From positions 4,096,001 to 4,160,000 of the forward strand of contig CATQHZ020000001.1 of assembly GCA_958296135.2 (NCBI GenBank): a stretch of 64,000 nucleotides of DNA, given 5' to 3'. The DNA comes from an uncultured Poribacteria bacterium (GTDB lineage Bacteria > Poribacteria > WGA-4E > WGA-3G). Of this stretch, positions 9,078 to 57,293 are shown piece after piece (the first letter of the stretch is position 1; every line of letters begins with the position of its first letter). A model generated the notes under the pieces. The model ran no database searches, was not told the DNA's origin, and saw only the letters and a program-made list of their open reading frames with translations. The translations under genes and the position numbers were made by a program.

Positions 9078-10403
9078 CTACCGGTGTTCTACATCCATCG
9101 TGATAAAAACGGCATTCAACACCTCCCGCTCACGCCGGCCAGAAGGTTTGTTGACAACGTCATCGTTAACGAAAAAGGTGCTAGACGAACCGCCATCAAG
9201 ATTAATCGCCTCGGTCGCGCCGAGTTCCAGCAAGATGCCGGCCAGCTCGTGGAGCGTCAATCCAGTACTATACCGCGGCTGCCGCCCATCGGCGACGACT
9301 AAAAACAGCGTATCCGCGTTGTAACCGAGGGCGGTGCGCGGCTCATGACTCAGATTGAGCACCGATGTCCGCCTACCGGGACGATGCTCCTTTTCGGCCC
9401 GGTGCATCTCCACAAGCGTCGGATGTATCTGGCCGCTCTTGAGGAGTCGGAGCCGGCCGCCAATCGCATGGCGCGCTTGATGCCACACCGGCGGCGAGAG
9501 CGTGAACGTCATCGTGCATGCCACACCCGCCCCGAATTCGGAGACAGGCGGTGTCTGCACACGTGAACTTACCCAGAGAACCGCTCCATCTCGCGGAATC
9601 GCGCTGTCCCCATCTCTCGTCACGCCGCTCACACGATAAGGATAAGGCTCGCGCGGCACAGGCCCTCGCGCGACATGCCATGGGCCGGTTAAAGATTGAG
9701 CAGCACCGGTAAGAATCACCTCTTGCCCACGGCGACGGTTGGTGCGCGTCGATGCTCCCATCCGCGGCGTGTAAAGCGTCACCTCGCACCCATCTAGTCG
9801 CCGCTGGTTGATGCATCCGAGCGGCAATGTGTGCGTGCCTATCATCACACTAGCTCGCATCTCAACGGGGCCACTGAGAAATTCGCCGGAGTCGGTTACA
9901 CCAAAACAGGCATCGGCATCCGTCGGCTGCGTCATGAGCTCGCCATCTTGGATGTGTAAATTCTCTAATACGCCGCCGTACCCGCGCATGTCGCCGAGCA
10001 CGCCGAAGCCACCGTTAACCGCAACAAGGACACGCCTATCCCCGCGTCGCATGCGACGCTTTGCCATTGCGCGAACCGTCTCTTTCCCCAAAATCTGTGA
10101 ATTTGCAAGAGATACCTCAAAATGCAACAGCGGTTGATGCCGAGACATCTCCGCCACGTATAGCACGCACGTCTCAGCATCCCAGTCATAACGATAGAGC
10201 CGGAGCCCAGGCGACAATTCGGCCGGAAATAACGCCGTTTTCTTCCCACCGGCTTGCACGAAGACCGCGGGCAAGAGTAGGAAGCAAAGGAGGCACCCTA
10301 TCAAGTTTTTTGTATGCCGCAATGCATTCGGATAGGCATTCGGATAGGCATTCTGTGATGAGAACACGGCTTTACGTCCTCCATCATTACTCTGACAAAG
10401 CAT
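9078..10403 (-). CDS. Phosphodiester glycosidase (NAGPA/DUF2233) family protein
   Basis: AVNGGF, EPRTALG, VADGRQ and AINLDGGSSS motifs. Confidence 0.85.
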   Translation of the reverse strand: MLCQSNDGGRKAVFSSQNAYPNAYPNALRHTKNLIGCLLCFLLLPAVFVQAGGKKTALFPAELSPGLRLYRYDWDAETCVLYVAEMSRHQPLLHFEVSLANSQILGKETVRAMAKRRMRRGDRRVLVAVNGGFGVLGDMRGYGGVLENLHIQDGELMTQPTDADACFGVTDSGEFLSGPVEMRASVMIGTHTLPLGCINQRRLDGCEVTLYTPRMGASTRTNRRRGQEVILTGAAQSLTGPWHVARGPVPREPYPYRVSGVTRDGDSAIPRDGAVLWVSSRVQTPPVSEFGAGVACTMTFTLSPPVWHQARHAIGGRLRLLKSGQIHPTLVEMHRAEKEHRPGRRTSVLNLSHEPRTALGYNADTLFLVVADGRQPRYSTGLTLHELAGILLELGATEAINLDGGSSSTFFVNDDVVNKPSGRREREVLNAVFITMDVEHR

Positions 10404-10438
10404 CTCGCCTGTCTTGATAGGCGTGCCCTTGACGATGA

Positions 10439-10816
10439 CTACGTCTCTTGAGATATTTCGCCTTTTGTCCGCCGAATTTGAACGGCGAAATAGGCAATCG
10501 GATGTTCTACCGGTGGATGAAGTTTCTTGACGGTGAGCACCACTTCATCCACCGCGAACTGTGCCAGAATAGCCATCGCTATCGTCTCAGCGAGTGCCTC
10601 AACGAGTTGAAACGACTGACGCGTGCCGATATTGACGATGAGTGCCACCACCTCAGCATAGTCAATCGTTTCAGTAAGCGCGTCGGTTTGGCAGGCTGCC
10701 TCAAGCGAACAGCCTAACGTTGCGTTGATTTCATAATGCCCACCCACCTGCCGTTCCGCTTTGGGAACACCGTGGTGGCCGTGAAATCGGATGCCTTTGA
10801 GGATAATTTTGTCCAT
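10439..10816 (-). CDS. folB: Dihydroneopterin aldolase
   Basis: MDKIILKGIRFHGHHGV..ER..TIDY..LVEALAE..K..PP. Confidence 0.92.
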   Translation of the reverse strand: MDKIILKGIRFHGHHGVPKAERQVGGHYEINATLGCSLEAACQTDALTETIDYAEVVALIVNIGTRQSFQLVEALAETIAMAILAQFAVDEVVLTVKKLHPPVEHPIAYFAVQIRRTKGEISQET

Positions 10817-10880
10817 TGAAAACAAGAACCTTGGGCAGCGCAAGCGGCTATGTATTCACGACATCCGCCTTGAAGAAAGG

Positions 10881-11498
10881 CTACTCTTCAGCAATCTCAC
10901 CGACGGTATGGCCGGGCTCAACCAGGTCGCGAATCTGTTTTCCATTCTTGCCACCGGTGTAATCAATAGCACGGATTTTCCAGCTCTTGTCCTGTTTTCT
11001 CAGCGTGGAAATGAGATTGCCCTGCTGATTGCCCCACGCGTACTCGCCGCGCAAAACGGCATCCTTCCCGCGGCCATCAATAGCGATGAAGGTGATGTCC
11101 ACGTTCATCTTCCCGCCGCGCAGCCGGAAAATACCGTCCCACGCTTTCTGCACCGCATTCCAACCGTCATTTCTCTCAAAAGTGCCGGCCCAAAAGGTCC
11201 ACGCGGTAAAAACTTCGTCCTCCTGCTTCTCGCTTTTGAACCACGTGTCGCCTAGCGTGTCAACATCCTGGTCGCCGTGGGCGATGGCGTAGACTTCGTA
11301 AAGCGCGCGAATCGCATCCTCCTCAACAGCGAAGTCAATATTCCTTTCAATAGTCCCAGCCGGTTCCGAAGATTGCGACGGAGTTGCCGTTGGAGTTTGC
11401 GTTTGCGGTGCTTCCGTCTCCGCATCGTCGCCGCCACACGCCATCAGCCCAGCAGCAAGCAAGACGATCAGGAAATAACAAATCGCTTTCGGTTTCAT
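10881..11498 (-). CDS. Lipoprotein with NTF2/SnoaL-like domain
   Basis: Lipobox LMAC; EEDAIRALYE..WKIRAID pattern. Confidence 0.6.
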   Translation of the reverse strand: MKPKAICYFLIVLLAAGLMACGGDDAETEAPQTQTPTATPSQSSEPAGTIERNIDFAVEEDAIRALYEVYAIAHGDQDVDTLGDTWFKSEKQEDEVFTAWTFWAGTFERNDGWNAVQKAWDGIFRLRGGKMNVDITFIAIDGRGKDAVLRGEYAWGNQQGNLISTLRKQDKSWKIRAIDYTGGKNGKQIRDLVEPGHTVGEIAEE

Positions 11499-11602
11499 AC
11501 GTATCTCCTCCGTTCAAGGTAATAAACTAGCACTATTTTAGCAGGTAGCGCGATAAAAGTCAAGGGGAAATTTTAATGTCGCTCGTCTTAAAAACGATTT
11601 TG

Positions 11603-11611
11603 TGGTATAAT
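11603..11611 (+). promoter_or_regulatory. Extended -10 promoter upstream of the moaDE leader
   Basis: TGGTATAAT. Confidence 0.55.
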
Positions 11612-11620
11612 CATTGCAAA

Positions 11621-11760
11621 AGGCATCGCGACCGGATAAGGATTAAGAACATAATCGGGTAATTTTTGACCGGCGGGCGGCCAGAGACATCCGCGGCTCC
11701 ACCGCGGCCCGCTCCGGAACATTGCCCGATGAAATCCTGAAACTTCACGAAGTCGCGCCT
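11621..11760 (+). ncRNA. Candidate structured RNA (rod-like hairpin) upstream of moaD
   Basis: Nested complementary arms GCGAC/GTCGC, AGGATT/AATCCT, ATCGGGTAAT/ATTGCCCGAT, CCGG/CCGG, GCGGG/CCCGC, CCGCGG/CCGCGG. Confidence 0.5.
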
Positions 11761-11784
11761 ACCTACTTGCAAAGGAGTACCGGA

Positions 11785-12039
11785 ATGAACGTTACAGTCA
11801 AATACTTCGCTGTCTGCCACGAGATGCTAGACAGAACCGAGGAAGAGATGCACCTCCCCGAAGGTGCCACCGTCAAAACCATTTTGAAACGGCTTGAGGA
11901 AGAATGGCCGGAAATCGCCGAGTTTTACGAGGTGATGCAGATGTCTGTCAACTGGGAATATGCCACCGAGAATACGGAACTCGCCGATGGCGATGAAGTC
12001 GCGCTAATTCCACCAGTGACAGGAGGCACTGATGTTTAA
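11785..12039 (+). CDS. moaD: Molybdopterin synthase sulfur carrier subunit
   Basis: VKYFA..SVNWEY..LADGDEVALIPPVTGG; AAAGGAG RBS. Confidence 0.9.
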   Translation: MNVTVKYFAVCHEMLDRTEEEMHLPEGATVKTILKRLEEEWPEIAEFYEVMQMSVNWEYATENTELADGDEVALIPPVTGGTDV

Positions 12040-12478
12040 GATAACCACCGAAGTCATTACCGGAACGGAAGTTCGAGAAGCGGTAGAGGGCCCTGATGCC
12101 GGCGCAATCGTCGTGTTCCTCGGCACCGTGCGGAATAACACCGATGGCAGACCGGTGACTTGCCTCGAATACGAGGCTTATCCGCCGATGGCGGAGAAAA
12201 AAATGGCGGAAATCGCCCAAGAAATCGCGCAAAAATGGGGCGAATGCCTTCGCGTCGCCATGATTCACCGCACCGGAAAATTGGAAATCGGCGAGGTGAG
12301 CGTCGCTGTCGCTGTCGCTTCGCCGCACCGAAAAGACGGGTTCAAAGCATGCCAATACGCCATGAATCGCCTCAAGCAGATTGTGCCTATCTGGAAGCGC
12401 GAAGTGTGGGCCGATGGGGAAGCGGAATGGGTGAAGCCGGACGCGGTTTTCTTTGACGCACCCCAGCCGCGCGCCTAA
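12032..12478 (+). CDS. moaE: Molybdopterin synthase catalytic subunit
   Basis: GAIVVFLGTVR, LEYEAY, HRTG, SPHR, LKQIVPIWKRE. Confidence 0.95.
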   Translation: MFKITTEVITGTEVREAVEGPDAGAIVVFLGTVRNNTDGRPVTCLEYEAYPPMAEKKMAEIAQEIAQKWGECLRVAMIHRTGKLEIGEVSVAVAVASPHRKDGFKACQYAMNRLKQIVPIWKREVWADGEAEWVKPDAVFFDAPQPRA

Positions 12479-12590
12479 TCCCAGGGGAATGCGGAATAAC
12501 AGACCCGAGACAAATCAAATTAATTTGGTACCCGCAAAGAGCGCGCTTGCCAAGCGCGCCGCACGGGGTTTGTTGTGCTAACACGCACGC

Positions 12591-13343: not shown

Positions 13344-13404
13344 GGCTTGGTTGTCACACAACTCTGGCGCGCTTTGGAAGCGCGCCTACCGGATTAGGAC
13401 TGTG

Positions 13405-14130: not shown

Positions 14131-14246
14131 GATGAATTGCCTCCTATTGTCAGCATTGATGCAAATTCCTGTTCTCTAGTCAGCGCGCTGAGACTGGAAC
14201 CGTTGCTGTTTCAAACCGCGCCTACCGAGCCAAGTCTGCATTGATG

Positions 14247-14960: not shown

Positions 14961-14966
14961 GGCTTC

Positions 14967-15556: not shown

Positions 15557-16895
<1,339 letters not shown>

Positions 16896-21256: not shown

Positions 21257-22186
21257 TCACCCGACCAAATACTGAAACACCGCCGACAAATTATCATCGG
21301 GCGAATAAAGTTGCGATACTTCCAAGTCGTGTTCGACGAGCAGCTGCGGGAGACGCGCATAAAACGCATCCGGCTTCGCTGTCTCGATGATGACATCGCC
21401 ATTGATACCGCCGAAGGTGACGCTCAGAATGTCGTCAAAGGGGAGGCAGACCGCGGCCAAGCGACGCGGTTCGGCGGCATTCAAGTAGACCTTGTGCGGG
21501 TGCCCGTCGATGAGTTCGCGGATATCGGAGATGGTGCCCTCCGCCAAAATACGTCCCTGATGGATAAGCAAGATTGTCTCTGTTATCGCCTCTATCTCGT
21601 AGAGGATATGGCTTGAGACTACCATGCTGATGCCTTGTTCGGCGAGTTCGGCGAGAAGATTGAGGATGTGCCGCCTACCAATCGGATCCAACCCGGTCAA
21701 CGGTTCGTCAAGGAAAAGGAGTTCGGGTTCATGCAGGAGTGCCTGCGCGAGTTTGATGCGCTGCCGCATCCCCTTGCTGTATGAACCAATCGGTCTGTCC
21801 TTCGCTGAAAACATGTCAACGGTTTCAAGGGCGCGCAGACTTCGTTCTGCCCCCTCCGTTTTATCATAACCACTCAACGTGGCGAAGAAGGCGATGAACT
21901 CAAAGCCGCTCATAAATTGGTAGGCGAGTTCTATATCTGGACAGTAGCCCACCTGCCGTGTGAGCCCTGGGTTGTTCCAAACAGGTTGCTCTAGCACGGT
22001 GACGGTGCCTTGGTTCGGCTTGAGTTGTCCGGTCATCACTTTGATGAGGCTTGTTTTTCCTGCACCATTCGGGCCGAGTAAGCCGGTTATCCCCGGATAC
22101 ATCGTCAACGTCACATCGTTGACACCCATCACCTCGCCATACCATTTGGAGAGGTTTTCTGTGCGGACAATTGCTTCGTTATTCAT
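21257..22186 (-). CDS. ABC-2 type transporter ATP-binding protein
   Basis: GPNGAGKT, YSKGMRQR, FLDEP, SSH. Confidence 0.92.
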   Translation of the reverse strand: MNNEAIVRTENLSKWYGEVMGVNDVTLTMYPGITGLLGPNGAGKTSLIKVMTGQLKPNQGTVTVLEQPVWNNPGLTRQVGYCPDIELAYQFMSGFEFIAFFATLSGYDKTEGAERSLRALETVDMFSAKDRPIGSYSKGMRQRIKLAQALLHEPELLFLDEPLTGLDPIGRRHILNLLAELAEQGISMVVSSHILYEIEAITETILLIHQGRILAEGTISDIRELIDGHPHKVYLNAAEPRRLAAVCLPFDDILSVTFGGINGDVIIETAKPDAFYARLPQLLVEHDLEVSQLYSPDDNLSAVFQYLVG

Positions 22187-23240
22187 CGGACCCTCCGTGT
22201 ACCGTAGGGCGCGGGCCTGTCCCTCGCCGTGCTGCAGTTTGCCCAAAACTGTCCATGTTTTCGCGAATTTCCAAGGTCGCCTCCAGATTCTGGATGCCTG
22301 CCGTGGTGCCGATGGCGGTGACGCAGGCGGCACCGGTTGCAGCGGCGAGTTCCGCTGTCGCCTTCAAATCCCATCCCATTACCGTTCCTGCGAGAAATCC
22401 TGCAACGTAGGCATCGCCTGCACCCGTCGTATCCACGACGTTGACGGGATATGCAGGCACGAAAATCTCTTCCGAAGGATGTTGAGAGCGGGAGGGCTCT
22501 CCTACCGGCCCCCTGCAGACGTAGCTGCCTTGTGTGCCCATTTTAATGCCGACGGTGTGGATGCCGTAGGCTCTGAAAAATTGGGAGATTTCACGCAACG
22601 GCGGCGATTCGCGCCCCGAGGCATCCCCTACCAAGTGTTGGGCTTCTACCAAACTTGGGAGGAAAATGTCAACGTAAGGCAGGCACGGTTCCAAGGTTTC
22701 TAACCATTTTCCGGTTGCATCCCAGGCGGTATCAAGCGAGGTGGTTATTCCGAGTGCCTTCGCTTTTCGGAGGACGTTTGCCATCGGTTCACCATCAAAG
22801 TTTGGCATGACGAGTGAGCCGCCGATGTGTAGAATCTTCGCGGTTTTGATGATGTCCCAATTGAGTTCTGCCTCGCGGAGTTCGCCGTTGGCACCGAGGT
22901 AATGGCAAAAACTCCGTTCACCATCGGAGGCGACAGCAACGAAGGTGAAGGAAGTGCTCACATCGGTTTCGGAAGCATCCGCTGTCACCATGCCGGTGGT
23001 GTCCACGGCGTTTTCCGTGAGCGTTTGCAAGACGAGATTGCCGAACGCGTCGTTGCCAACTTTGCCCATCGCGCCGACAGATATGCCCAACCGCGCCAGC
23101 GCGATGGCGGTGTTATTTGCACAGCCGCCGCTGTGGATTTCCATTTCGTCAAAAAGTGCGAGTGTGCCCTTGTCGGGGAACCGGTCTATCGGCCGGCCAA
23201 GCACGTCTACGACAAAAATTCCGAGCGATAGCACATCCAT
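22179..23240 (-). CDS. PfkB-family carbohydrate kinase
   Basis: GGCANNTAIALARLG, VGNDAFG, VVDTTGAGDAYVAGF. Confidence 0.92.
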   Translation of the reverse strand: MDVLSLGIFVVDVLGRPIDRFPDKGTLALFDEMEIHSGGCANNTAIALARLGISVGAMGKVGNDAFGNLVLQTLTENAVDTTGMVTADASETDVSTSFTFVAVASDGERSFCHYLGANGELREAELNWDIIKTAKILHIGGSLVMPNFDGEPMANVLRKAKALGITTSLDTAWDATGKWLETLEPCLPYVDIFLPSLVEAQHLVGDASGRESPPLREISQFFRAYGIHTVGIKMGTQGSYVCRGPVGEPSRSQHPSEEIFVPAYPVNVVDTTGAGDAYVAGFLAGTVMGWDLKATAELAAATGAACVTAIGTTAGIQNLEATLEIRENMDSFGQTAARRGTGPRPTVHGGSDE

Positions 23241-23286
23241 TTGTTTACCTCTGCGAACGAAGCATGGCGAGGGCCAGACCTTCGCC

Positions 23287-25341
23287 CTACGGGGCTGTGG
23301 GCCGTTTTGACGCAAACATTATCACTAACGTTTCGTCAGTAGCCTGCTGAACTTCCGCCGTGTTCCTGACCGGGCGCGATGTCCACCCAATCTGCATCGC
23401 GTTCTCTGAATTCAAAAGATATTGTAACACACCTTCGCGCTGTAGGATTTGCGCGAACGCCTTTCGGGGGCCGTCAAGTCCCTCGTCGGGTGGCACTCTT
23501 TTTCGGGTTGTGTCTACTCGGGTCAGGTGCGCTGAATCTATAGACGCTTTATCCCACGAGAAAAATACCTCTTCTACATAAGTCCGCGGATGCCACGGTT
23601 CCACGACTGCTGCACGCACTTGAAATGCAGTGCCTTGGAGGGCTGTTCCTAACCCGCTGCCGGCTGCGCGCTCCACCGGCTCTAACGGACGAATAAAGGT
23701 GCTTTGCGGCAGGTTCATTAATGTTTCTTCACGCGCTGCTGCCCGAAGCGCGACGTAACGCTGTAAATGCGCGCGGTTCCGTTCCGGATAGAGAGATACA
23801 ATGCCGACGCGGTCTGCAGCGATGCGGTTCGGCAAAACCGTTCTCGCGATGCCGAGCGCGCTGATGGACACGAGGACAAGTAACGCGCCGCCTATCCAAT
23901 AGCTGCGTGGCGGCCGCCCGCCCGATGCCCGCGCCCTACGGGGACGCGGCGGCTTTTTACGACGCGCGCGTTGCTTAAAGATGAAGAGCACACCGCCGAA
24001 ACTGAACAGATACACCGGGAACGCAATCGCGAGGAGTTTAATGAGCGGCACCTGTGTCGGCATTTTTTTTAGGAACTGTGCGGCAATCTTCTCCTCGTGG
24101 CTGCGGTGCGGCGCATACCGGTCTGCGAGGTGCCGGGCCGATTTGCCGTGTGTTTCAAGCAGCCTGCGCCAGAAGGTTTCACCTGTCTCTTGTTCTGCCG
24201 AGAGATTGCGGGGGACAGGCCCCCGCACTACGGTAAATGGACGTTTTTCATTCTGCATGCCATAGGATGTCCGCCCGCCTGTGTCCCTCGCCATGCCACG
24301 CGCATTAAAAAGCGCGTCATAGTCAAACGCAAAACAGAGAATCTGACCTTCCCCAAAGTTCCGCTTCGCTATGGAGATGTCTTCGTCAGTGCCTAGCACC
24401 ACTTGGCAGCCATTTTTCGGTTTGAAGACAATGCGTTCGTGTCTTCCGGGCGGAGTCGCGACCGGGAGGGCGCGCCTACCGGTTTGGGATGTCTCAGCAG
24501 TTTCCACGCCGATTAACTGGACCGGGAGGAAGGGTTCAATGAAACTGCCTTGCAGATAGCGGAAATTGCTCCCGCCGGAGACGACGAGGGTGCCGCCGTG
24601 CTGCACCCAATCTAACAACGCAGTTTGCTGTGCTTTGGTGACGTTTCTCGCCGTGAGTGCAACCTCCCGAATGACGAGGATATCGACAGCGTCATATCCT
24701 ATCCACTGCGTGGGGAGCGCGCGTGAATTCGGCAGATACCTGACGTGCGCCTGCGCGTCCTCCCCCACTTGTTGTTTGTCCAGAAATTGCTTGAGTTTGT
24801 CCCCGCTCGGTGCCAACGCTAGCACGAAATAGTCCTTGAGTTGTATCGGTGTCGGCGGTGACATTTCTGTCGCATTAACAATACCGTAGGGCGAGTGCCT
24901 GTCCCCCGCCGCTGTTTTGTTACCAGCACCGTCCGTCTTGACAGCGTCAAGACGGCCTGGTAAACGTGGTTTCTGTCCCGGACGCTGTTGAGCAACGCCT
25001 TGCGAACAACAAAAAACTTGAATTACCAATTTTGTGGCGATTTTCGGACAGTAGATGTAGAACCGTTTCAACTGCTGTTCGGTTGCGCCGAGTTTCAGCG
25101 GCGTGGCATACCGCTGGATGAGCGCGTCTGAAAAGAAATTGCGCACCTCAATGACGAGTTCGCCGATAAACGGTTCGTGCTGACGCTGCACCGTGACATC
25201 CACTGGTGCCCATTTCCCTGTTTTGTAACCGCCGTTGAATCCGAACGTGACATTCTCCACATCCACCGCGCCGGAGGAAACCGAAGTTGTGAGCATCAAG
25301 AGGAACAGGCTTATGAGATAAGGCGTGCGGGATTGATACAT
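23287..25341 (-). CDS. Membrane protein with class I glutamine-amidotransferase-like domain, carrying multiple REP-derived inserts
   Basis: Signal peptide; WIGYDAVDILVI..LLDWVQHGGTLVVSGG; two TM helices. Confidence 0.6.
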   Translation of the reverse strand: MYQSRTPYLISLFLLMLTTSVSSGAVDVENVTFGFNGGYKTGKWAPVDVTVQRQHEPFIGELVIEVRNFFSDALIQRYATPLKLGATEQQLKRFYIYCPKIATKLVIQVFCCSQGVAQQRPGQKPRLPGRLDAVKTDGAGNKTAAGDRHSPYGIVNATEMSPPTPIQLKDYFVLALAPSGDKLKQFLDKQQVGEDAQAHVRYLPNSRALPTQWIGYDAVDILVIREVALTARNVTKAQQTALLDWVQHGGTLVVSGGSNFRYLQGSFIEPFLPVQLIGVETAETSQTGRRALPVATPPGRHERIVFKPKNGCQVVLGTDEDISIAKRNFGEGQILCFAFDYDALFNARGMARDTGGRTSYGMQNEKRPFTVVRGPVPRNLSAEQETGETFWRRLLETHGKSARHLADRYAPHRSHEEKIAAQFLKKMPTQVPLIKLLAIAFPVYLFSFGGVLFIFKQRARRKKPPRPRRARASGGRPPRSYWIGGALLVLVSISALGIARTVLPNRIAADRVGIVSLYPERNRAHLQRYVALRAAAREETLMNLPQSTFIRPLEPVERAAGSGLGTALQGTAFQVRAAVVEPWHPRTYVEEVFFSWDKASIDSAHLTRVDTTRKRVPPDEGLDGPRKAFAQILQREGVLQYLLNSENAMQIGWTSRPVRNTAEVQQATDETLVIMFASKRPTAP

Positions 25342-26210
25342 AGTTGCGTCTCCACTGCGCCGTCAAAGGCGTGCGTGCTAAAAACGCCGTTGCCTAACAT
25401 AATCATTGATGCGATGCCGCCGTTTGCTTCAATCTGCGCGATTGTCTCAATAACGCGCGCATCGCTGAGCAGGCCGCTCTCCACGGAAAACTGCTTGGAT
25501 ACCTCAAAACAGGCGGTGAGGCGCTCGGAGCTCGGTTCAGTGCGCGAGAGAGTTCTCAAGACAGCCAACGCCGTGTCAGCCGCCCGATTGATACGCGCTG
25601 TCTGTTCAGGATTGCCTAGCACCGCGCTCGTCTGAATTGGGCCGAAGTACCGATAATAGATGGGTTGTTCGGCAATGGGCAATCTGTCGGCGACGAGCGG
25701 CGCGCCTTCCTGCAGTTTGACGAGGAAGCCGCCGTGATATTGCGAACAGACATCGCCCAACCCGGTCCGATTCTCCACTTCAGCGACATGCGCTATCATG
25801 GCGAGTGCCTCGGACGTTTTGCCGATGCCGAGTTGTTCGTTGAGCGCGTATGCAGTTGCGAGTGCAGCGGCACCGCTTAACCCGAAGCCACATCCTAACG
25901 GCAGTGCTGAATAAATGGACACCTTGGTTCGCGAAGGATAGCCTATCTCGCTACGGGCAACGTTTCCATCTGTGAGTTTATCCACAACGGCTTGCACTGT
26001 CGGAAAACCGATCGCCGCGCCATTAAAGCAGATTTCTGTCTCATGATGTGGGGACACGGTGACGGTGACACCCTCTTTCACGGTAAACCCCATGCCGAGG
26101 GAGTGCATCCGGGTTGCGTCGGCGTGTGGAATAATTTTGAAGATACAAGAGATGTTGCCGGGGGCAAATGCGCCGGTCATGTTTTTTGTATGTCGCAATG
26201 CGTTGTTCAT
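25311..26210 (-). CDS. Archaeal-type pantoate kinase (GHMP family)
   Basis: AFAPGNISCIF, LPLGCGFGLSGAAAL, AHVAEV..RTGLGDV, MIMLGNGVF. Confidence 0.8.
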   Translation of the reverse strand: MNNALRHTKNMTGAFAPGNISCIFKIIPHADATRMHSLGMGFTVKEGVTVTVSPHHETEICFNGAAIGFPTVQAVVDKLTDGNVARSEIGYPSRTKVSIYSALPLGCGFGLSGAAALATAYALNEQLGIGKTSEALAMIAHVAEVENRTGLGDVCSQYHGGFLVKLQEGAPLVADRLPIAEQPIYYRYFGPIQTSAVLGNPEQTARINRAADTALAVLRTLSRTEPSSERLTACFEVSKQFSVESGLLSDARVIETIAQIEANGGIASMIMLGNGVFSTHAFDGAVETQLCINPARLIS

Positions 26211-37981: not shown

Positions 37982-39082
37982 ATGCATTTATTTATGCGGT
38001 GCTACCTCGCGATACTCCTCATTTCTGGCGCGATGGGAAACCTCGCCACCGCTAACAGAGCCGATGTGCATTACCGAACCGCTTTAGCCTACCACGCACT
38101 GGAGGAATTCGACCGGGCGGTGGCAGCATACCAGAAAGCCATCGCTTGCGAACCGAATTCCTTCAATGTGCATCTTCACCTCGGCGTTGCGTATTCGGAG
38201 CTTAAGCAGTATCAAGCCGCGCTTGCCGCTTACCACAAAGCCGCCCAACTCTCATCTACCAACGCGCAGCCGCACTATAACATCGGTTTAGTCTATCTGA
38301 AGCAGGGAAAATTGCCTCTCGCACGGGAAGCCTTTGAAAAAGCCATCGCACTTGCCGCTGATTTCGAGGATGCCTACAACGGCCTCGGCGAAGTGCTTAT
38401 GAAACAAGGGGCATTGGCGGATGCTGCGCGTGTCTATACAAAAGCGACGCGGCTCAATCCAAACGGAATCGCCGCACTTGCCGGCCTAGGCAAAGTCTAC
38501 GCGAAGCAGAAACGCTTGCCACTCGCAATTGATACGTTTGAAAAGATTATCGCCATTCAAGCCGATAACACTGCGGCGCACTATCACCTCGCGCAGGCCC
38601 TGATGAAATCCGGAGAACAGGAGAAGGCAGCCGCAACGATGGAATTCTTCAAAGTGCTGCGCCAGACAGCCCTGCTCCTTGAGGAGGCACAAAAGTGGGT
38701 GAAAACGCGCCCGGCAGATGCGAAAGGCTATAACAACCTCGGCATCGTCTACCTCGCGCGCCGTCGCGCTGATAAGGCGATTCAAAACTATCAACGCGCC
38801 ATCGCATTAGCACCGACATTGGCGACGGCGCATTACAACCTGGGGCATGCTTACCATAAACAGGGCAAATTGCACCTCGCGATTGCGGCATATCAGCGAG
38901 CAATCTCTGCCGATGCGAACCTCGCGATCGCGCATAATAATCTGGCTGTCTGCTATATGGACAGGCAAGCGTTAGATAAAGCGCGGTTTCATGCCAAGAC
39001 CGCCGTGCGTCTCGCACCAGATGAATGGAATTATTGGGATACCCTCGCGCAAGTCCAAACGTTGCTCGGTTTAAACAAATGA
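37982..39082 (+). CDS. Tetratricopeptide repeat protein
   Basis: Repeated AHYNLG/AYNGLG..AY.KAI 34-aa units. Confidence 0.9.
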   Translation: MHLFMRCYLAILLISGAMGNLATANRADVHYRTALAYHALEEFDRAVAAYQKAIACEPNSFNVHLHLGVAYSELKQYQAALAAYHKAAQLSSTNAQPHYNIGLVYLKQGKLPLAREAFEKAIALAADFEDAYNGLGEVLMKQGALADAARVYTKATRLNPNGIAALAGLGKVYAKQKRLPLAIDTFEKIIAIQADNTAAHYHLAQALMKSGEQEKAAATMEFFKVLRQTALLLEEAQKWVKTRPADAKGYNNLGIVYLARRRADKAIQNYQRAIALAPTLATAHYNLGHAYHKQGKLHLAIAAYQRAISADANLAIAHNNLAVCYMDRQALDKARFHAKTAVRLAPDEWNYWDTLAQVQTLLGLNK

Positions 39083-40749
39083 AATGTATCTCTCATCTGC
39101 TACTCAGCCTCACCCTTTCCACCCTCGCCCATCCGCAACCCCAATTCGTCGATGCCACTGCCGAGGCTGGCATCACCTTCCGGCACGTCGATGGACGCAG
39201 CGGACAGAAATACCTCATTGAAACGCTCGGATCCGGCGCGCTCTTCTTTGATTACGATAACGATGGCAATCGCGACCTTTATATCGTCAACGCTAACACT
39301 ATCCCCGCTGCAACCGAAAACCGAAATACCCTCTACCGGAACAACGGCGACGGCACTTTCACCGACGTAACAGAAACTGCCGGTGTCGGAGACATCGGAT
39401 ACGGTGTCGGCTGTGCAGCTGCCGATATTGACAACGATGGCTACGCCGAACTTTACGTCACAAACTTCGGGGCTAATCGTCTTTATCATAACAACGGTGA
39501 CAGAACGTTTACCGACATCACCCACAAAGCAGGCGTTGGCGATGAACGCTGGGGAACGAGCTGCGCCTTTCTTGATTACGATTTAGACGGAGACGCAGAT
39601 CTCTACGTCGTCAACTATATGAAGTTTTCTGTTGCAGAAAACCGTTGGTGGGAGACGCGCGGCATCCGAACCTATTGTAGTCCGACAGATCAGATTGCCG
39701 GCAGCCACTTCGTCAGTGAACCCGATATCCTCTATCGCAATAACGGCGATGGCACCTTCACGGATGTCACGGCGGCTTCGGGGATATCGCATCGTGCCCT
39801 CGGCCTCGCCGTGGCAGTCGGCGATTACAATAACGACGGCACCCCAGACCTGCACATCGCCAACGATATGGAGGCAGACCTGCTATATCAAAACAACGGC
39901 GACGGCACGTTTACTGAAACCGCCGCCCTCACAGGTGTCGGCTACGACGAAAACGGGATGCCTGGCAGCGGCATGGGCAGCGCATTCGGTGATTACGATA
40001 ACGATGGATACCTCGATCTTGTCGTCAGCAACGCCTCCGCGCTTCCGGTTATCCTCTATCACAATGAGCAGAGTCAATTTTTCAGCGATGTCTCGTATGT
40101 ATCAGGGATCGGTGCCGTCACAGTCCCCTATTTCAAGTGGGCGGTGGAGTTTTTTGATTACAACAACGATGGATATCTGGACATTTTCGTCGCGAATGGG
40201 CATCTGCAAGAAAACATCGGGCTTTTTTCTGATGCCACGTATGCACAGGGAGATTTGCTTTTCCAAAATAACGGCATCGCGACCGGGAGGACGCGCCTAG
40301 CGGAAGAGGACAGGCCCCGCTTCACGGATGTCTCATCTATCGTCGGACTGACGCAGTTGCCTCCCAAAGTCGGGCGCGCCGCCGCTTGCGGCGACTACGA
40401 CAACGATGGCGACATTGACATCTTTCTCAACAACTCCAATCAACCTGCAACACTCCTCCGCAACGAGGGTGGCAACCGCAATCATTGGATAATAATTCAG
40501 ACGTTAGGCACTTCTATCGGCGCGCGAATTACTGTGAAGGCGGGAGACTTATCGCTAGTCAGAGAAGTTCGGAGCGGCGCGAGTTATCTCTCGCAAAGCG
40601 ATCTGCGCGTTCATTTCGGGCTCGGGGAGCATACCAATGTGGAGCTGCTTGAGATTCGTTGGCCGAGTGGGCACGTGGCCCAGTTTTTTAATTTGAAGGC
40701 AGACCAGGTTTTGCGGCTTGAGGAGGGAAACGCGGTGATGGCGCGATAA
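39079..40749 (+). CDS. CRTAC1/FG-GAP repeat protein with ASPIC/UnbV domain
   Basis: Many DYDNDG..DL and YRNNGDGTFTDV repeats; SGASYLSQSD..HFGLG..IRWPSG. Confidence 0.9.
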   Translation: MKCISHLLLSLTLSTLAHPQPQFVDATAEAGITFRHVDGRSGQKYLIETLGSGALFFDYDNDGNRDLYIVNANTIPAATENRNTLYRNNGDGTFTDVTETAGVGDIGYGVGCAAADIDNDGYAELYVTNFGANRLYHNNGDRTFTDITHKAGVGDERWGTSCAFLDYDLDGDADLYVVNYMKFSVAENRWWETRGIRTYCSPTDQIAGSHFVSEPDILYRNNGDGTFTDVTAASGISHRALGLAVAVGDYNNDGTPDLHIANDMEADLLYQNNGDGTFTETAALTGVGYDENGMPGSGMGSAFGDYDNDGYLDLVVSNASALPVILYHNEQSQFFSDVSYVSGIGAVTVPYFKWAVEFFDYNNDGYLDIFVANGHLQENIGLFSDATYAQGDLLFQNNGIATGRTRLAEEDRPRFTDVSSIVGLTQLPPKVGRAAACGDYDNDGDIDIFLNNSNQPATLLRNEGGNRNHWIIIQTLGTSIGARITVKAGDLSLVREVRSGASYLSQSDLRVHFGLGEHTNVELLEIRWPSGHVAQFFNLKADQVLRLEEGNAVMAR

Positions 40750-48359: not shown

Positions 48360-48382
48360 CCGGCAGCGGGCATGCTCCGAAA

Positions 48383-49381: not shown

Positions 49382-49388
49382 GGCAGCT

Positions 49389-50865
49389 ATGCAGAACACC
49401 CTCTACTTCGGCGATAACCTCCAGGTGATGCGAGAGATGCAAACCCACAGTTACCATCTCTGCTACTTCGATCCGCCGTTCAACAGCGGCCGCAACTACA
49501 ACATCTTCCTCGCCGGCTCCACCGCGCAACGCAAAGCGTTTGACGACATCTGGCGATGGGACGACGCGGCGCGCGAGAATCAGGCCGCTGTTCTCCACTA
49601 CGATGGCAGACACCCGGAACTCGTTGAGACGATGGATAATTTAGCGTTCTGTTTACAATATATTAACTATTGGTTAAGAAGGGGGGGGGAAATCAGAAGA
49701 ATCGATGCGTGCCTATCTCGCCTTCATGGCCCCGCGCTTGGCAGAGATTTGGCGGTTGTTGACTCCGACAGGTAGCGTCTATTTGCACTGCGACCCGCAT
49801 GCGAGCCACTACCTGAAATGCATGATGGACGCAGTTTTTGGCGCGTCGAATTTCCGGAACGAGATTATCTGGTGTTACGCAGGCGGCGGCATCCCGCGCA
49901 AGGATTTCCCGCGCAAACACGACGTGCTTTTACGATACGCCCGCGGGAAAGATGTCATCTTTAACACCGAATATCGGCCCTATGGCGCACACAACGTGAC
50001 AGGCAAAAGGTTCACCGACCGCGGCGGCACCCGTGCGTTGCACTATCGCGAAAAAGGCACGCCCATTAACGATTGGTGGACTGACATCAAGCCGCTGATA
50101 AATCTCTCCAAAGAACGCCTCGGCTACCCCACCCAGAAACCGCTCGCGCTCCTTGAACGCATCATCAAAGTCTCCTCTAACCCCGGTGACATCGTCTTCG
50201 ATCCCTTCTGTGGCTGCGGCACGACAGTAGATGCCGCGCACGGCCTCGGTAGGCATTGGGTAGGCATCGACCTCACCGTTCTCGCTTTGGGGCCTATGGA
50301 GCGGCGGCTCAGCGAACGCCATGGACTTCGTCCGAACGTCGATTATCGCATTGAGGGGTATCCCACAACCTGCCAAGATGCCATCCTCCTCGCCGAGCAG
50401 AACCCGAACGACTTCGCGAATTGGGCAGTCACCCGATTGGGACTCGCGCCAACACCGAACAGCAACGATGGCGGATTTGATGGCACGGGGCGGATTACCC
50501 TATGGGAAAATAGGCACCTCGCCGAGGCGACGCAGACGAAACTGCCTGTCATCGCCGAGGTGAAATCGGGAAGGCGTTTGAACCCGAATCAGGTGCGCGC
50601 CTTCCGCACAGCAATGCGGGATAACGGGGCCGCCATCGGGATTTTCATTACGTTGCACGAAGTCACGCGGGGGATGCGCAACCTCGCCGAAGAGGAGGGA
50701 TTCATTGAGCACAACGGGAAGCATTATCCGCGCTTGCAGTTCTGGCAGATAACGGATACTTATTTTGAGGAGGGACTCATACCGGTGAATTTGCCATGGC
50801 AAATCGATGAACGGCCAAAAGCGGAACGGCATTACGGCGGAGAGCAGACCTATCTAACGACATAA
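49389..50865 (+). pseudogene. Beta-class N4/N6 DNA methyltransferase fused to a Mrr-like PD-(D/E)xK nuclease, frameshifted at a G9 tract
   Basis: ORF1 has GDNL and DPPFNS; ORF2 has GSVYLHCD, YPTQKP, DPFCGCGTT and DGGFDG..EVKS; removing one G at 49681-49689 fuses them (491 aa). Confidence 0.85.
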
Positions 50866-50868
50866 TAC

Positions 50869-51673
50869 GTAGCGTGCGGGCCTGTCTCTCGCGAACCCCG
50901 ATGCCCTTCCCCGTCGCGCGAGGGCCTGTCCCTCGCGAACCACCGCCCTTTCCCCGTAGCGCGCGGGCCTGTCCCTCGCGAACCACCGCCCTTTCCCCGT
51001 AGCGCGAGGGCCTGTCCCTCGCGAACCACCGCCCTTTCCCCGTAGCGCGAGGGCCTGTCCCTCGCGATGCTCCGGCCGCAACGAGAACCGGCCGCCGGCC
51101 GGCGGTTTCAAACATTTTCTTTCTAATGCTCTTCCCCCGTAGCGCGAGGGCCTGTCCCTCGCGATGCTCCGGCCGCAACGAGAACCGTCCGCCGGCCGGA
51201 GATTGCAGCCTGTTGAGGGACAGGCCCTCAACCTACGGGGAGGGTAGTTTCCATGATACCGTAGCGCGAGGGCCTGTCCCTCGCGATGCTCCGGTCGCAA
51301 GAGAACCGTCCGCCGGCCGGCGGTTTCAAACATTTTCTTTCTAATGCTCTTCCCCCGTAGCGCGAGGGCCTGTCCCTCGCGATGCTCCGGCCGCAACGAG
51401 AACCGTCCGCCGGCCGGAGATTGCAGCCTGTTGAGGGACAGGCCCTCAACCTACGGGGAGGGTAGTTTCCATGATACCGTAGCGCGAGGGCCTGTCCCTC
51501 GCGATGCTCCGGTCGCAAGAGAACCGTCCGCCGGCCGGCGGTTTCAAACATTTTCTTTCTAATGCTCTTCCCCCGTAGCGCGAGGGCCTGTCCCTCGCGA
51601 TGCTTCGGCCGCAAGAGAACCGTCCGCCGGCCGGAGCATCGCCGCGTGTTGAGGGACAGCCCCCTCAACCTAC
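50869..51673. repeat. Hierarchical REP/BIME-like array
   Basis: 10 direct copies of GTAGCGCGAGGGCCTGTCCCTCGCGA and 3 inverted variants; 43-bp and 218-bp periodicities. Confidence 0.92.
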
Positions 51674-51675
51674 GG

Positions 51676-52707
51676 TTAAGGGACTGTTTTTTGGAACGGC
51701 ACCAGCATCTCACAAATCAGCAACAGGAGCGCGATTCCGACAAACAACTGGAACCGTTCCGCGTAGCCGCCATCGGAAGTCCCCACCTTGAATTTCCGCG
51801 TCGCCAACTGTGCGAGTTCTCCCGCAAGCCGCCCACTTTGCTGAGAGATTTCCGTTTCATGATAATAACGTCCGCGTCCCTGTTCGGCAACATCGCGCAG
51901 TGTCTCTTCGCCGAGTTCGGTTAGCACCAACTGTCCGTTGACATTCCGCTTATACCCGGTGCCGCTTGCGAGCGGAATAGGCGCGGGCTTCCCCGAATTT
52001 CCAATGCCGATGCAGTAAACATGCACGCCGGCACTCGCAGCTGCTTTTGCCGCTTCAATCGCTGTGTCCCCGTGGTCTTCGCCGTCTGTCCACAAGATTA
52101 ACGCTTTATGTGCACTGTCTCTTTCCTGTGTGGGCGCGTTTCCCCGGTCGGTGCGCGATTCCCTATTCAGGCGGGCAACGGCAGTTTCAATCGCATTTCC
52201 AATCTGCGTTCCGCTGTGAACGAGCGTCTTCGCCGCTATCGCCGACACGAATTCTTTGAGCGTAGAGGTATCGGTTGTCAAGGGACAGACGACGAAACTC
52301 GCCTCAGCAAACAGCAGCAACCCGATGCGGTGCCCCTGCATCTGTTCAATCAGCGCGAAAATGGCGCGTTTTGCGCGGCTCAATCGACTCGTTTCTTCCC
52401 CATCTTCGGCCAGCATACTCGTTGAAATATCAAGCGCGAGCATGATATCCACAGTCTGCCGTTGCACCGGTTCCCGTTTTTCGCCAAACTGCGGTTGCGC
52501 GGTAGCGAATGTTACGAGAAGATAGCTCGCCATTAGCAATCCTGCTTGGATTTTGCGCCTTCGTGCATAAGTCGGGTTGAGAATGCTGTGAAATCGTTCG
52601 CGCGCCTTCCGCTTCTGCCTTATCCCGAAGAGCGTTAAGAGGAAGATGGGCGGCACACTCCACAGCCAATGGAGGAATTCGGGAGAGCCAAAGTCAATCC
52701 AGGTCAT
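51676..52707 (-). CDS. vWA domain protein (BatB-like)
   Basis: F..PE.L..LW N-terminal motif; DIMLALDISTSM; TDGEDH; likely start ATG 52707. Confidence 0.85.
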   Translation of the reverse strand: MTWIDFGSPEFLHWLWSVPPIFLLTLFGIRQKRKARERFHSILNPTYARRRKIQAGLLMASYLLVTFATAQPQFGEKREPVQRQTVDIMLALDISTSMLAEDGEETSRLSRAKRAIFALIEQMQGHRIGLLLFAEASFVVCPLTTDTSTLKEFVSAIAAKTLVHSGTQIGNAIETAVARLNRESRTDRGNAPTQERDSAHKALILWTDGEDHGDTAIEAAKAAASAGVHVYCIGIGNSGKPAPIPLASGTGYKRNVNGQLVLTELGEETLRDVAEQGRGRYYHETEISQQSGRLAGELAQLATRKFKVGTSDGGYAERFQLFVGIALLLLICEMLVPFQKTVP

Positions 52708-52735
52708 GAGTGTCCCTTCAAACCCGCCTTTAACC

Positions 52736-52950
52736 GTAGCGCGAGGGCCGTCACGCCGAAACGCTGTCATCTCTGCCGCCTCGCTGCAGAGATGTCCACT
52801 GTCTCTCGCGATGCTCCGGCTGGGCGGCATGTTGAGGGACAGGCCCTCAACCTACGGCATTCCTGCCTTTAACCGTAGCGCGAGGGCCGTCACGCCGAAA
52901 CGCTGTCATCTCTGCCGCCTCGCTGCAGAGATGTCCACTGTCCCTCGCGA
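52736..52950. repeat. Two REP copies each interrupted by a 50-bp insert, with an inverted REP between them
   Basis: GTAGCGCGAGGGCC[50 bp]TGTC(T/C)CTCGCGA at 52736 and 52875. Confidence 0.85.
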
Positions 52951-52982
52951 TGCCCAGCCTGAGACAACCGCCGGCGGTTTCA

Positions 52983-53975: not shown

Positions 53976-54048
53976 GTTTTTATTGCGTTTGGCAGCGGAC
54001 CCGGCTCTGCGTCTCGGCTGACGCGGGGTATGCCTTGGCTCAGATTGT

Positions 54049-55761
54049 TTACAAACTTAATTCCGCGTTCAACCACTCAATTCGTTGGCGATAGGCCGCC
54101 ACTTCTGCCGTGATGCGTGCTGCATCCCATTCGGAGAACGCTCCGAGAAATCGCGCTATCTTGGGTGCGATGTCAACGCCTTGCCCCGCTGTCAATCCGA
54201 TGCGGGTGCGCCGCCAGAGGAAATCTTCCAGATTCATCGCCATTTCTCCCCAAAATGCGTAGCGGACTTCCGCCTTCACGAACGGAAAGGCTGCTGTCAA
54301 GGCTTCTGAAAGGGTTGCATCTTCAGCCATCCACTTCCGGATGACATCGGCACCTGCGTCGCCATACCGCCGAATAAGGCGCGTTACTGCGGGATTACAC
54401 CCCTCGCCTACCGGCGCTAAGTTCAGTAACGGCAGTGTTGCTGTTTGACAGTGCCGCGCGATGCCCAGTTTTTCTGCAAGCCTGTCCACCGTTTCCTCCG
54501 CTATTTGTCGATGCGTCGTGAATTTCCCGCCGTAGATATAGATAACCCCGCTCGCGCTTTCAGCTATGGTATGCCCTCTTGAAACGTAGTCTCCGTAAGA
54601 TAGAGGGAGGTATCCGCGTCTTTTCTGGGCGATGAGGGGCCGCACGCCCGCGTAAGCGGAAATAACGTCGGAGCGGTTTAACGCGGCGTTCGGAAAAACT
54701 CGCTTTGCTCCCGCCAATAAATAGTCCACTTCCGCAGCAGTGGGACGGACAGCGTCTGGTGCTCCCTCCGGATGCGTTTCGGTGGTGCCGAGGAGCAACA
54801 GGTTTTGGTATCCGTTCGTCGTCTCTCCGGCACTCGCACCCACCGGCAAGAGAAAAATAACACGCGGTTTTCCCTGATGCGATTTCTCTGAACGCGTGAG
54901 CGTCGCGATGCCGTAGTGACTCCCCGGCACGCGCGGCACAAGGATGTGAATCCCTTTCGCTTTCTGGGTTGTTAACTTCGGCACGCCATCATGGCACTGC
55001 TCCTTCTCCCACACCTTGTCTGTCCATGGGCCTGTTGCTGAGACGATGTGCTTCGCGCGCACCTCAAATTCATCGCCCGTGAGACTATCTGCAACTTGAA
55101 CAACTGTTTCAGCCCTGGTTTGTCGCACAAAGTTAAGAAAACGGACGTAGTTGGCAACTCTCGCGCCGTGCGTATGTGCATCCTTCAGCGTGAGCAGGCA
55201 CAACCGGGCATCATCCACCGTGCTATCCCAAATGACAGCGGCCCCCTTCAACCCCGCTGTCTCAATCGGACCGAGGTGCCGCTGAATTTCCACAACATCG
55301 CGGATAACCTCAGCCTTCTCCCTCCTATCTGTCTGCGAAAGATGGTTATAGAAATGCGCCGCCATCTGGATGCCTGTGAGAGGATACCTATCGCCAGCGT
55401 AACAGAGGATAGCGATAGGCAGCGGCCTGACAACGTTCGGCGCAATGCGTAACAGCACCTCGCGTTCCCGCCGCGCCTCCTTCACCAGCGCAATGTCGCC
55501 TTTGGACAGATACCGAAATCCGCCATGCACCAACTGCGAGGTAGCACTACTCGTCCCGCTGCCAAAATCGCCTTGCTCAATGAGCCCGGCGCTGATGCCG
55601 CCGTTCAGTGCCAAATCACGGATAATGCCCGCGCCGACGATTCCCCCACCAATGACAAGCACGTCTAAGTGCGCTGTCTTTAAGGTTTCTATATTTTCGG
55701 CGCGAGTGCGAGCAGAAAATTCTGTATTTTTGTTGTTCACAAGGCGTTGTGCTGCTTCCAT
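54049..55761 (-). CDS. glpD: FAD-dependent glycerol-3-phosphate dehydrogenase
   Basis: DVLVIGGGIVG, GTSS..S.LVHGG.RYL, DDARL, GVRPL, GGKFTT.R. Confidence 0.85.
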   Translation of the reverse strand: MEAAQRLVNNKNTEFSARTRAENIETLKTAHLDVLVIGGGIVGAGIIRDLALNGGISAGLIEQGDFGSGTSSATSQLVHGGFRYLSKGDIALVKEARREREVLLRIAPNVVRPLPIAILCYAGDRYPLTGIQMAAHFYNHLSQTDRREKAEVIRDVVEIQRHLGPIETAGLKGAAVIWDSTVDDARLCLLTLKDAHTHGARVANYVRFLNFVRQTRAETVVQVADSLTGDEFEVRAKHIVSATGPWTDKVWEKEQCHDGVPKLTTQKAKGIHILVPRVPGSHYGIATLTRSEKSHQGKPRVIFLLPVGASAGETTNGYQNLLLLGTTETHPEGAPDAVRPTAAEVDYLLAGAKRVFPNAALNRSDVISAYAGVRPLIAQKRRGYLPLSYGDYVSRGHTIAESASGVIYIYGGKFTTHRQIAEETVDRLAEKLGIARHCQTATLPLLNLAPVGEGCNPAVTRLIRRYGDAGADVIRKWMAEDATLSEALTAAFPFVKAEVRYAFWGEMAMNLEDFLWRRTRIGLTAGQGVDIAPKIARFLGAFSEWDAARITAEVAAYRQRIEWLNAELSL

Positions 55762-55889
55762 TTGGCAAATCCGCTTGACTGAGCGGTTCGCATTGACGTT
55801 GTCAATACTTACGTTTCTGCCTCAATCCAAACCTATTAAAGGCGGCACGACACGAGAGCTCCCTCGCGCACCGAGTATCCAGCAACTTT

Positions 55890-57293
55890 TCATTTCACGT
55901 TTTCAATTCCCCGCGCATAGCGGGCCAGCGGTTCCGCATGCGCGACACTCTTGCGGATGGCAGTGAGAACGCCTGCCGCCGCGTGCGGCACAGGGTTCGT
56001 CAACAACGGCAAGAACACCAACCGGGAACAGGCTTTCTCGGTGACAGGCAATGCGCCGACGGAATACCCTTCATACGTTCCACCCATCGCTGGCGTGCAG
56101 AGTGCGCCGCGTCCCTCTGTGTAAATGTCAAGGCCCTGCGCGAATAAGGGCAGCGTGTGCAGTAACGGATACGGATTGCTATTTGTTGACATGCCTCCTG
56201 AAAAAACCGGCACGCCATCTCCTACCACAGCAGGATAAGGGTTGTTATTCGCCAAGACTCCCTCTTTGCGGAGCGCATCGGCGAAGACTTGTGCAGGAAG
56301 GCCGTGCAGCTCTTCTTCGCGATAGTGAACAGGAAACCCGAAGAACCCCGCCGGTTCCGCGCCCGGATATCTTGAAACGGAATGCACACCCGGCACCTCT
56401 CGCAAGCCATTTGAAATTTCGTCAATATAGGCGCGGCGGCCAGCATTGAGCGCATCCAACTTCTGCATCTGCACCGAGGCAATCCCGATGGCCAGCGGGT
56501 GCGCGCGAAACTTAACGCCGAGCCCCATCATCGGGAGGTACGCGTAGTTTCGATGTTCTGCATCAATATCCACTGTCCTGTTGACTTGGCCGAGCAGACA
56601 AGCGCGTTCAAAAAGCGCAGCACTATTTGTCGCCAGCATGCCGCCTTCGCCGGCACTGACTGATTTGCTCCCTTGTAAACTCCACGCACCCGCGTGCGCG
56701 ATGCTACCGCACGGCGTGCCTTTGTAAGTTGCCCCGTGCGCGTGCGAACAATCTTCAATAACAGGCACCCCAGTCTCTTCGCTGAGTGCCATCAGCGCAT
56801 CCATGTCGCAAACGTTGCCCCACAGATGCACGGCGATAATTGCCTTCGTGCGTTCAGTAATACGCCCCCGAACATCGGCGACATCGATGAGCAACGTGCT
56901 CGGGTCCACTTCACAGAAGACCGGCTTTGCCATCAACATCAGCGCGGGAGTGATGGAACCCATCCACGTGTAAGTCGGACAGATTACCTCATCGCCAGGG
57001 CCAACCCCAAGCCCGAACATCGCGCTATGAATCGCCGCTGTGCCGTTGACAACGCTTATCGCGAAGCGCGTCTGATGCCGTTCACGCCACATCGCCTCAA
57101 ATGCTTGAACGGTGGGCGACGCACCCGACAATTCATTGCGCAGCGTCATCTCATACGCAATCTGCGCCTCTGCCTCCGTCATTTGGTGCCACTGCTCCAA
57201 TCGAGGAAAGGGGGCCTCTGGCGTTCTTTCAAAGACAGGCGTGCCGCCGAGGGCGGCCGGTATTTCTGCTGAAGATTGTTTTAAATGCGACAT
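55890..57293 (-). CDS. DegT/DnrJ/EryC1/StrS aminotransferase
   Basis: NGTAAI, PGDEVI, IEDCSHAHG, SLQGSK..GEGG. Confidence 0.9.
   Translation of the reverse strand: MSHLKQSSAEIPAALGGTPVFERTPEAPFPRLEQWHQMTEAEAQIAYEMTLRNELSGASPTVQAFEAMWRERHQTRFAISVVNGTAAIHSAMFGLGVGPGDEVICPTYTWMGSITPALMLMAKPVFCEVDPSTLLIDVADVRGRITERTKAIIAVHLWGNVCDMDALMALSEETGVPVIEDCSHAHGATYKGTPCGSIAHAGAWSLQGSKSVSAGEGGMLATNSAALFERACLLGQVNRTVDIDAEHRNYAYLPMMGLGVKFRAHPLAIGIASVQMQKLDALNAGRRAYIDEISNGLREVPGVHSVSRYPGAEPAGFFGFPVHYREEELHGLPAQVFADALRKEGVLANNNPYPAVVGDGVPVFSGGMSTNSNPYPLLHTLPLFAQGLDIYTEGRGALCTPAMGGTYEGYSVGALPVTEKACSRLVFLPLLTNPVPHAAAGVLTAIRKSVAHAEPLARYARGIENVK

Follow-up and report, generated by a model that had tools for sequence, protein, structure and literature searches.

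The window analysed here is a 64,000-nucleotide stretch of DNA from an uncultured Poribacteria bacterium (G000:C1:4096001-4160000, from the 5.2 Mb source assembly G000), in which GTAG-tagged palindromes occur between genes and also, in frame, inside them. The intragenic sites are probably the spill-over of a very active system of repetitive extragenic palindromes (REPs) and REP-associated tyrosine transposases (RAYTs, also called TnpA-REP), spread by RAYT nicking and strand transfer within one Candidatus Poribacteria genus. On the sequence comparisons described below, this reading is given a probability of about 0.7. Genomes G000, G001 and G002 are three members of the genus, and G022 and G004 represent other genera. 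The nearest named relatives of the Tgt protein encoded in the window belong to Candidatus Poribacteria and share 78-80% identity with it, the next best reaching 62% or less. Gene names were taken from Pfam and NCBIfam scans, and mismatch distances were counted against a library of 84 abundant 24-mers from G000.

G000 is dominated by three GTAG-tagged hairpin families, A, B and C. The units are 24-27 nt long with GTAG 5' of a short palindrome, as in other GTAG REPs, and the high copy number and mainly extragenic location of such REPs were also found: with up to 4 mismatches allowed there are 3465 copies (1885 of A, 918 of B and 662 of C), 2824 of which are wholly intergenic. Family C is the most decayed, with 93 perfect copies among 662 against 1001 of 1885 for A and 400 of 918 for B. 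Contigs C2-C4 of the assembly, possibly plasmids or foreign contigs, have a GC content of 37%, 67% and 60% against 54% for C1 and carry 0 REP copies. The initial annotation had proposed looking for RAYT genes flanked by these REPs, and two intact Y1/HUH genes were found in G000, each flanked by its own family. RAYT1 (G000:C1:3734400-3734882) passes the NF047646 model (125.3 bits, cut-off 80), and 19 family B copies lie no more than 1.5 kb from it; RAYT2 (C1:4791068-4791598) scores above the Pfam Y1_Tnp cut-off, has the HUH motif and the tyrosine at the expected place, and is flanked by 19 family A copies. Family B is thus paired with RAYT1 and family A with RAYT2, whereas family C pairs only with a truncated RAYT remnant (G000:C1:3058988-3059152; 56% identity to RAYT1 over 55 aa), which has a single C copy 52 nt upstream. 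In a search of 41 genomes the family A pattern occurred 633, 720 and 3712 times in the three genus members and 0 times in the 38 others; C-like copies also occur in another genus, with 70 in 1.2 Mb of G022.

Copies inside genes have been found throughout the genome. Coding interiors in G000 hold 474 copies, where about 9 would be expected by chance, as estimated by codon-shuffling a third of the genes and scaling up. Family counts in coding and intergenic DNA, also proposed by the initial annotation, gave 0.125 copies per kb in gene interiors and 3.4 per kb between genes, a difference of about 27-fold. Under a stricter filter, which required coding-like sequence on both sides of a copy, 410 copies remained at 316 sites in 256 of 3305 genes, evenly distributed along the chromosome, and about 1 copy in 8 is intragenic. 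Perfect copies account for 89 of the 410 coding copies versus 1357 of the 2824 intergenic ones.

Orthologue comparisons have shown that these copies are additions to the host genes. Best matches below 60% identity (G022) or 70% (G002) were excluded from the tests. Among 496 G000/G022 orthologue pairs, 36 interior copies were present in 25 genes; 34 lay in net insertions of at least 4 aa, 1 in a smaller insertion and 1 in a net deletion, and 0 of the 36 fell in segments of equal length, so that none stood in conserved sequence. A REP was present in 26 of the 87 segments in which G000 was at least 5 aa longer and in 1 of the 43 in which G022 was longer. The small share of copies found inside conserved genes takes the form of net insertions in frame or of replaced patches, 3 to about 50 codons long and built from at least one REP with flanking bases. 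The validated hosts (20 of 25 were scanned) include ligA, fmt, metH, gnd, queG, malate synthase G and RsgA- and MurF-like genes, and the host proteins LigA, MetH, Gnd, QueG, Fmt, Tgt and malate synthase G pass curated cut-offs.

In the window, the palindromes listed by the initial annotation are present where it placed them, and the open reading frames read through them. The sites are as follows, where CRTAC1, BatB and glpD are the labels of the initial annotation for ASPIC/UnbV, VWA and DAO-family matches:
9651..9674, minus strand: in-frame family A REP within the gene for phosphodiester glycosidase (NAGPA), 9078-10259 (minus strand), 2 mismatches
16277..16300, minus strand: family C REP, in frame and antisense in tgt (15723-16895, plus strand), 2 mismatches, +9 aa
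22204..22227, plus strand: perfect family A REP (0 mismatches) in a C-terminal extension of the PfkB gene (22179-23240, minus strand)
22482..22505, minus strand: family B REP, in frame in PfkB between two strands of the fold, 2 mismatches, +11 aa
22608..22631, minus strand: degenerate family B-like sequence in a +6 aa PfkB insertion, 5 mismatches
23267..23290, minus strand: family A REP; the TAG of its GTAG is the stop codon of gene 23287..25341
23916..23939, minus strand: degenerate family A REP, insertion in gene 23287..25341, 5 mismatches
24208..24231, minus strand: perfect family A REP (0 mismatches), large insertion in gene 23287..25341
24456..24479, minus strand: perfect family B REP (0 mismatches) in gene 23287..25341
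24886..24909, plus strand: family A REP, antisense insertion in gene 23287..25341, 2 mismatches
25929..25954, minus strand: degenerate family A REP, insertion in the pantoate kinase-like gene (25311-26180, minus strand), 6 mismatches
40277..40320, minus strand: family B REP with a remnant of family A, read in frame within the ASPIC/UnbV (CRTAC1-like) gene (39079-40749, plus strand)
50869..52898, both sides of the BatB-like gene: family A REP arrays, mostly intergenic, the ordinary extragenic form
52130..52158, minus strand: weakly B-like sequence, 36-nt insertion in the VWA (BatB-like) gene, 8 mismatches
54389..54411, minus strand: C-like degenerate sequence in glpD
56200..56225, minus strand: conserved coding sequence of a DegT-like aminotransferase, no REP

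Alignment with orthologues has confirmed lineage-specific insertions in the glycosidase, tgt, PfkB (22482), the ASPIC/UnbV gene and gene 23287..25341. The glycosidase insert (from 9648 in the initial annotation) adds about 10 aa and is present only in G000 among five genomes, all 4 of 4 orthologues being without it. The tgt insert is missing from 27 of 27 other-genus orthologues; within the genus, G001 also has this family C copy, and in G002 the loop is occupied by a different insert, +17 aa long and of family A. This loop varies in length among solved Tgt structures, and an AlphaFold model of Tgt (shallow alignment; mean pLDDT 72) places the insert at the end of a helix and then in coil before a strand, with residues 190-195 below 50. 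The PfkB insert that had been placed at 22484 is missing from 16 of 16 other-genus orthologues, two loci with a stop inside the match (L315 and L317) having been excluded; the AlphaFold model of PfkB (shallow alignment; mean pLDDT 58.6) puts the inserts between secondary-structure elements and is too weak to lean on. The "several" sites claimed for gene 23287..25341 correspond, in orthologue alignments, to the copies at 24886, 24456, 24208 and 23916. The copy at 24456 is genus-shared, with decayed copies at the same position in both sisters, and replaced a longer outgroup loop. In the CRTAC1-like gene the family B copy spans 40277-40300 with 2 mismatches, is common to the genus and has the second match adjoining it.

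Other sites in the window are weaker. Degenerate sites were scored in a gapped test against 1500 shuffled 45-mers. The insertions at 22609 (PfkB), 25929 (pantoate kinase) and 52130 (BatB; +12 aa relative to both sisters) are real, whereas their repeat likeness is uncertain or weak; 38%, 1.7% and 16% of shuffled 45-mers, respectively, reach the same score. At the BatB position the outgroups likewise carry a long loop. The 22204 copy, which the initial annotation counted as internal to PfkB, is a perfect REP that lengthens the C-terminus of the protein by read-through. No net insertion was found at 54389 in glpD, where the three genus members are equal in length and shorter than the outgroup loop; this site may be an old replacement. 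The DegT claim is refuted: 5 of 5 orthologues preserve this peptide, the site differs from the library by 11 mismatches, and the likeness is due to chance and not to a REP insertion. A codon bias for GTA before Gly was also considered; it is raised only slightly in the genus, at 0.14 versus 0.11, and does not account for the strong sites. Contigs of four DNA runs (one sample, maybe the source of the assembly) match the window across the sites that lie between positions 8000 and 27500, with no joint dropping a single insert among the matches listed; because rare variants are lost from contigs, they say nothing on insert polymorphism.

An account of the sites as artefact or decay, through chance matches, assembly errors or pseudogenes, holds for DegT and possibly for the weakest sites, and at 6 mismatches matches are indeed largely chance (36 of 92 in equal-length segments). 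For the strong sites the orthologue alignments refute it, and the excess over the shuffled null, the insertions common to independently assembled species, the low ratio of nonsynonymous to synonymous substitution rates (dN/dS) in the hosts and the lack of a clear gene break caused by a REP make it hardly credible as a general explanation.

The initial annotation had named decaying host genes as a result that would overturn its claim, and the hosts are not decaying. In comparison with G002, the median dN/dS was 0.124 in hosts (n=32) versus 0.103 (n=341; p=0.11), and 32 of 32 tested hosts were at or below the host maximum of 0.18. In tests of 505 and 402 orthologues no gene was clearly broken by a REP; 1 and 2 cases, respectively, were flagged and were wide spans of tandem paralogues. 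Judged by selection only, the REP-bearing genes are functional and under purifying selection. Within them, the five stop-free frames are used unevenly (one copy per site; chi2 47.9 for A and 19.5 for B), and the more closely a frame's peptide resembles ordinary variable outgroup loops in amino-acid composition, the more often that frame is used (Spearman 0.81, n=10). We infer that this frame filter is the best indirect sign that the inserts are translated; a codon-phase bias of the target sites could also produce it.

Once in place, the insert peptides apparently drift neutrally, with a synonymous share of changes of 0.339 versus a neutral 0.335 +/- 0.013. There is no sign of selection on their sequence. 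An adaptive diversifier, in which inserts are retained for effects of the peptide or of the mRNA hairpin (interaction surfaces, translational pausing, mRNA stability), could draw on the strong frame preference, on the part of the inserts that is genus-shared and on the perfect copy at 24456 where the sisters have decayed ones, which could mean refreshing. It is nevertheless very unlikely, because insert changes are no more synonymous than those in intergenic copies, inserts are freely deleted or replaced in the sisters, coding copies are so much rarer per base and more decayed than intergenic ones, and sense and antisense coding copies of family A are nearly equal (68 and 70).

The preferred reading, spill-over of the REP/RAYT system, would proceed in several steps. 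A RAYT would nick single-stranded REP-bearing DNA and transfer the strand to new positions, short stretches of homology, either to the ends of REPs or to REPs already in place, would help the transfer, and host repair would complete the insertion. Selection would then purge frameshifts, stops, core insertions and frames with badly tolerated residues, and the survivors would be translated, flexible, neutrally drifting loops in working proteins. The same permissive loops would receive REPs repeatedly. Of the 13 loops that carry a REP in G000 and in G002 alike, 4 have different families, against 0.4 expected if matches were spread evenly over the 990 variable segments.

Junctions have been sought by an empty-site search of the genome, in which the unfiltered matches listed were mostly array rearrangements and the filtered version gave 14 cases. 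In one precise filled/empty paralogue pair (97-98% identical), the filled copy has +66 nt, made up of two B units and bounded on each side by a 5-nt repeat that corresponds to the usual 5' flank of family B. Most differences between G000 and G002 are patch replacements or expansions next to older REPs.

Several results weigh against movement by RAYT. Of the 5 independent coding events for which an empty paralogue exists, a single one is a precise insertion, the flanks of the other 4 being replaced or diverged; a rule of cleavage between C and T fits one end of the precise junction and fails at the other; RAYT2 matched no NCBIfam model at E<=1e-25; G001, which is 86% complete and holds 720 family A copies, yielded no Y1 gene; and isolated copies show no replication-strand bias (182 of 378 on the leading strand for A, 76 of 148 for B). 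The gene calls, moreover, come from our own hexamer model (3305 genes in G000), and the orthologue tests took in 1.2 of 5.6 Mb of G022 and 0.8 of 5.7 Mb of G002. Of all family B copies, 308 of 918 are on the leading strand; array copies favour one strand, and array members are not independent.

The patchy junctions, the homology at both ends of the precise event, the missing Y1 gene of G001 and the unbiased isolated copies would all suit a spread independent of RAYT, through template switching or ectopic gene conversion from arrays via microhomology, with RAYT as a passenger or starter. The one-to-one pairing of REP family with RAYT gene and the greater decay of the family whose RAYT is broken (C) argue against this and leave it fairly unlikely. 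The abundant families also include no non-GTAG hairpins, a weak point because the repeat library was seeded on GTAG/GTGG. A more far-reaching form of the spill-over reading would make RAYT and REP a standing, homology-guided rewriter that comes back to REP-bearing loops and overwrites decayed copies, either with fresh ones or with a different family, with about a tenth of the proteome in lasting loop turnover, unrelated elements (such as that of G004, described below) doing likewise in other Poribacteria genera and some inserts co-opted; this is speculative and, in our view, unlikely.

Other repeated elements and genes were also observed. An unrelated element of about 120 nt in G004 (135 copies of its 18-nt head; 0 in 4 other genomes) is read in frame within pantoate kinase and at two places in the orthologue of gene 23287..25341 (L046, L056; C1:3490535, 3491094, 3492563), and it occupies or adjoins loops filled by REPs in G000. 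A fourth, bipartite element of G000, about 90 nt long, has a GTAG/GCAG-tagged hairpin head, a variable middle and a conserved tail (e.g. C1:2345570, C1:3330449) and is read in frame as NVVIDNVDDG...PNALRQYEK. Of its 63 tails (up to 4 mismatches), 37 are intergenic, 7 lie within coding interiors, 14 stand at the ends of genes and 5 straddle edges, and none was found in the G022 sample; a tail-like motif is present at the 5' ends of window open reading frames 9078..10403 and 25311..26210. The pantoate kinase-like GHMP kinase at 25311-26180 scores 155 with the archaeal model NF040725 (cut-off 380) and was found in 5 of 5 relatives searched. A DNA methylase with a weak Mrr-type nuclease domain (49705-50865) directly precedes the REP array at 50869, and positions 2530-7876 and 59585-61786 hold a tandem set of four paralogues, which have carboxypeptidase-regulatory and C-type lectin domains, and a leucine-rich repeat protein with 66-nt repeats. 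The TAG of a REP's GTAG ends 106 called genes in G000.

The value of the case lies in its scale, in the pairing of repeat family with enzyme and in the junction data that can be obtained. The mechanism of REP dissemination is described as open in the portions of PMC8266576 drawn on here. Coding insertions provide a fixed reference, so that hundreds of empty/filled junctions, tied to two RAYT genes, could be read from close strains. The case also gauges the load of short foreign peptides that a bacterial proteome tolerates, in at least 5-8% of genes, and shows which reading frames survive. In annotating this genus, REP-derived loops and false 5' or 3' extensions should be expected.

Related systems have been described in other bacteria. 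The GTAG 5' of a short hairpin, the arrays on both sides of an HUH/Y1 gene and the hundreds to thousands of mostly extragenic copies resemble the REP/BIME (bacterial interspersed mosaic element) systems with RAYT, or "REPtrons", as covered in those portions of PMC8266576, from which G000 differs in having about 1 copy in 8 inside genes. For other RAYTs, the same portions report cleavage at CT/CA and strand transfer of single-stranded REP in vitro. The palindromic elements of Rickettsia (RPEs) are a longer analogue (PMC10969869, PMC3184786, both in part) and are likewise translated in frame in unrelated metabolic genes (PMC10969869). According to the relevant part of PMC10969869, however, the RPE-1 type is about 150 bp long (100-150), encodes one conserved peptide and is nearly half intragenic, whereas the G000 units of 24-27 nt use five frames, carry a GTAG tag, have cognate RAYT genes and are about 1/8 intragenic; the G000 repeats do not belong to the RPE-1 type. 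The closest precedent is that of Di Nocera (2013; PMC3733652), whose section 15 and part of supplement 3 report in-frame GTAG REPs of three families in core genes, mostly of Opitutus terrae, and tabulate 70 rows in 62 ORFs for that organism (our hand count). As in O. terrae, there are several GTAG families per genome, in-frame copies in core genes and double insertions per gene, and copies occur singly, as dimers or in clusters (7 to 50 aa); the hosts in both include ASPIC/UnbV proteins and DNA ligase, and stops formed by the TAG of GTAG are described there as well. The argument of the initial annotation that GTAG REPs are normally extragenic, and such inserts hence new, therefore fails against these ~70 cases, while its interpretation stands in so far as several RAYT-associated families add lineage-specific loop peptides to intact proteins genome-wide. 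Poribacteria are absent from those parts of the paper, and no paper on REPs in Poribacteria was found in a literature search whose coverage excluded most subscription journals. Unlike O. terrae, G000 has 410 copies in 256 genes, a rough ratio as the thresholds differ, and the genome-scale empty/filled, frame and selection tests presented here have no counterpart in those parts of Di Nocera's paper. Overall, events of the kind seen in this Poribacteria genus were known before; here their scale is unusually large, and they make a real and clean example.

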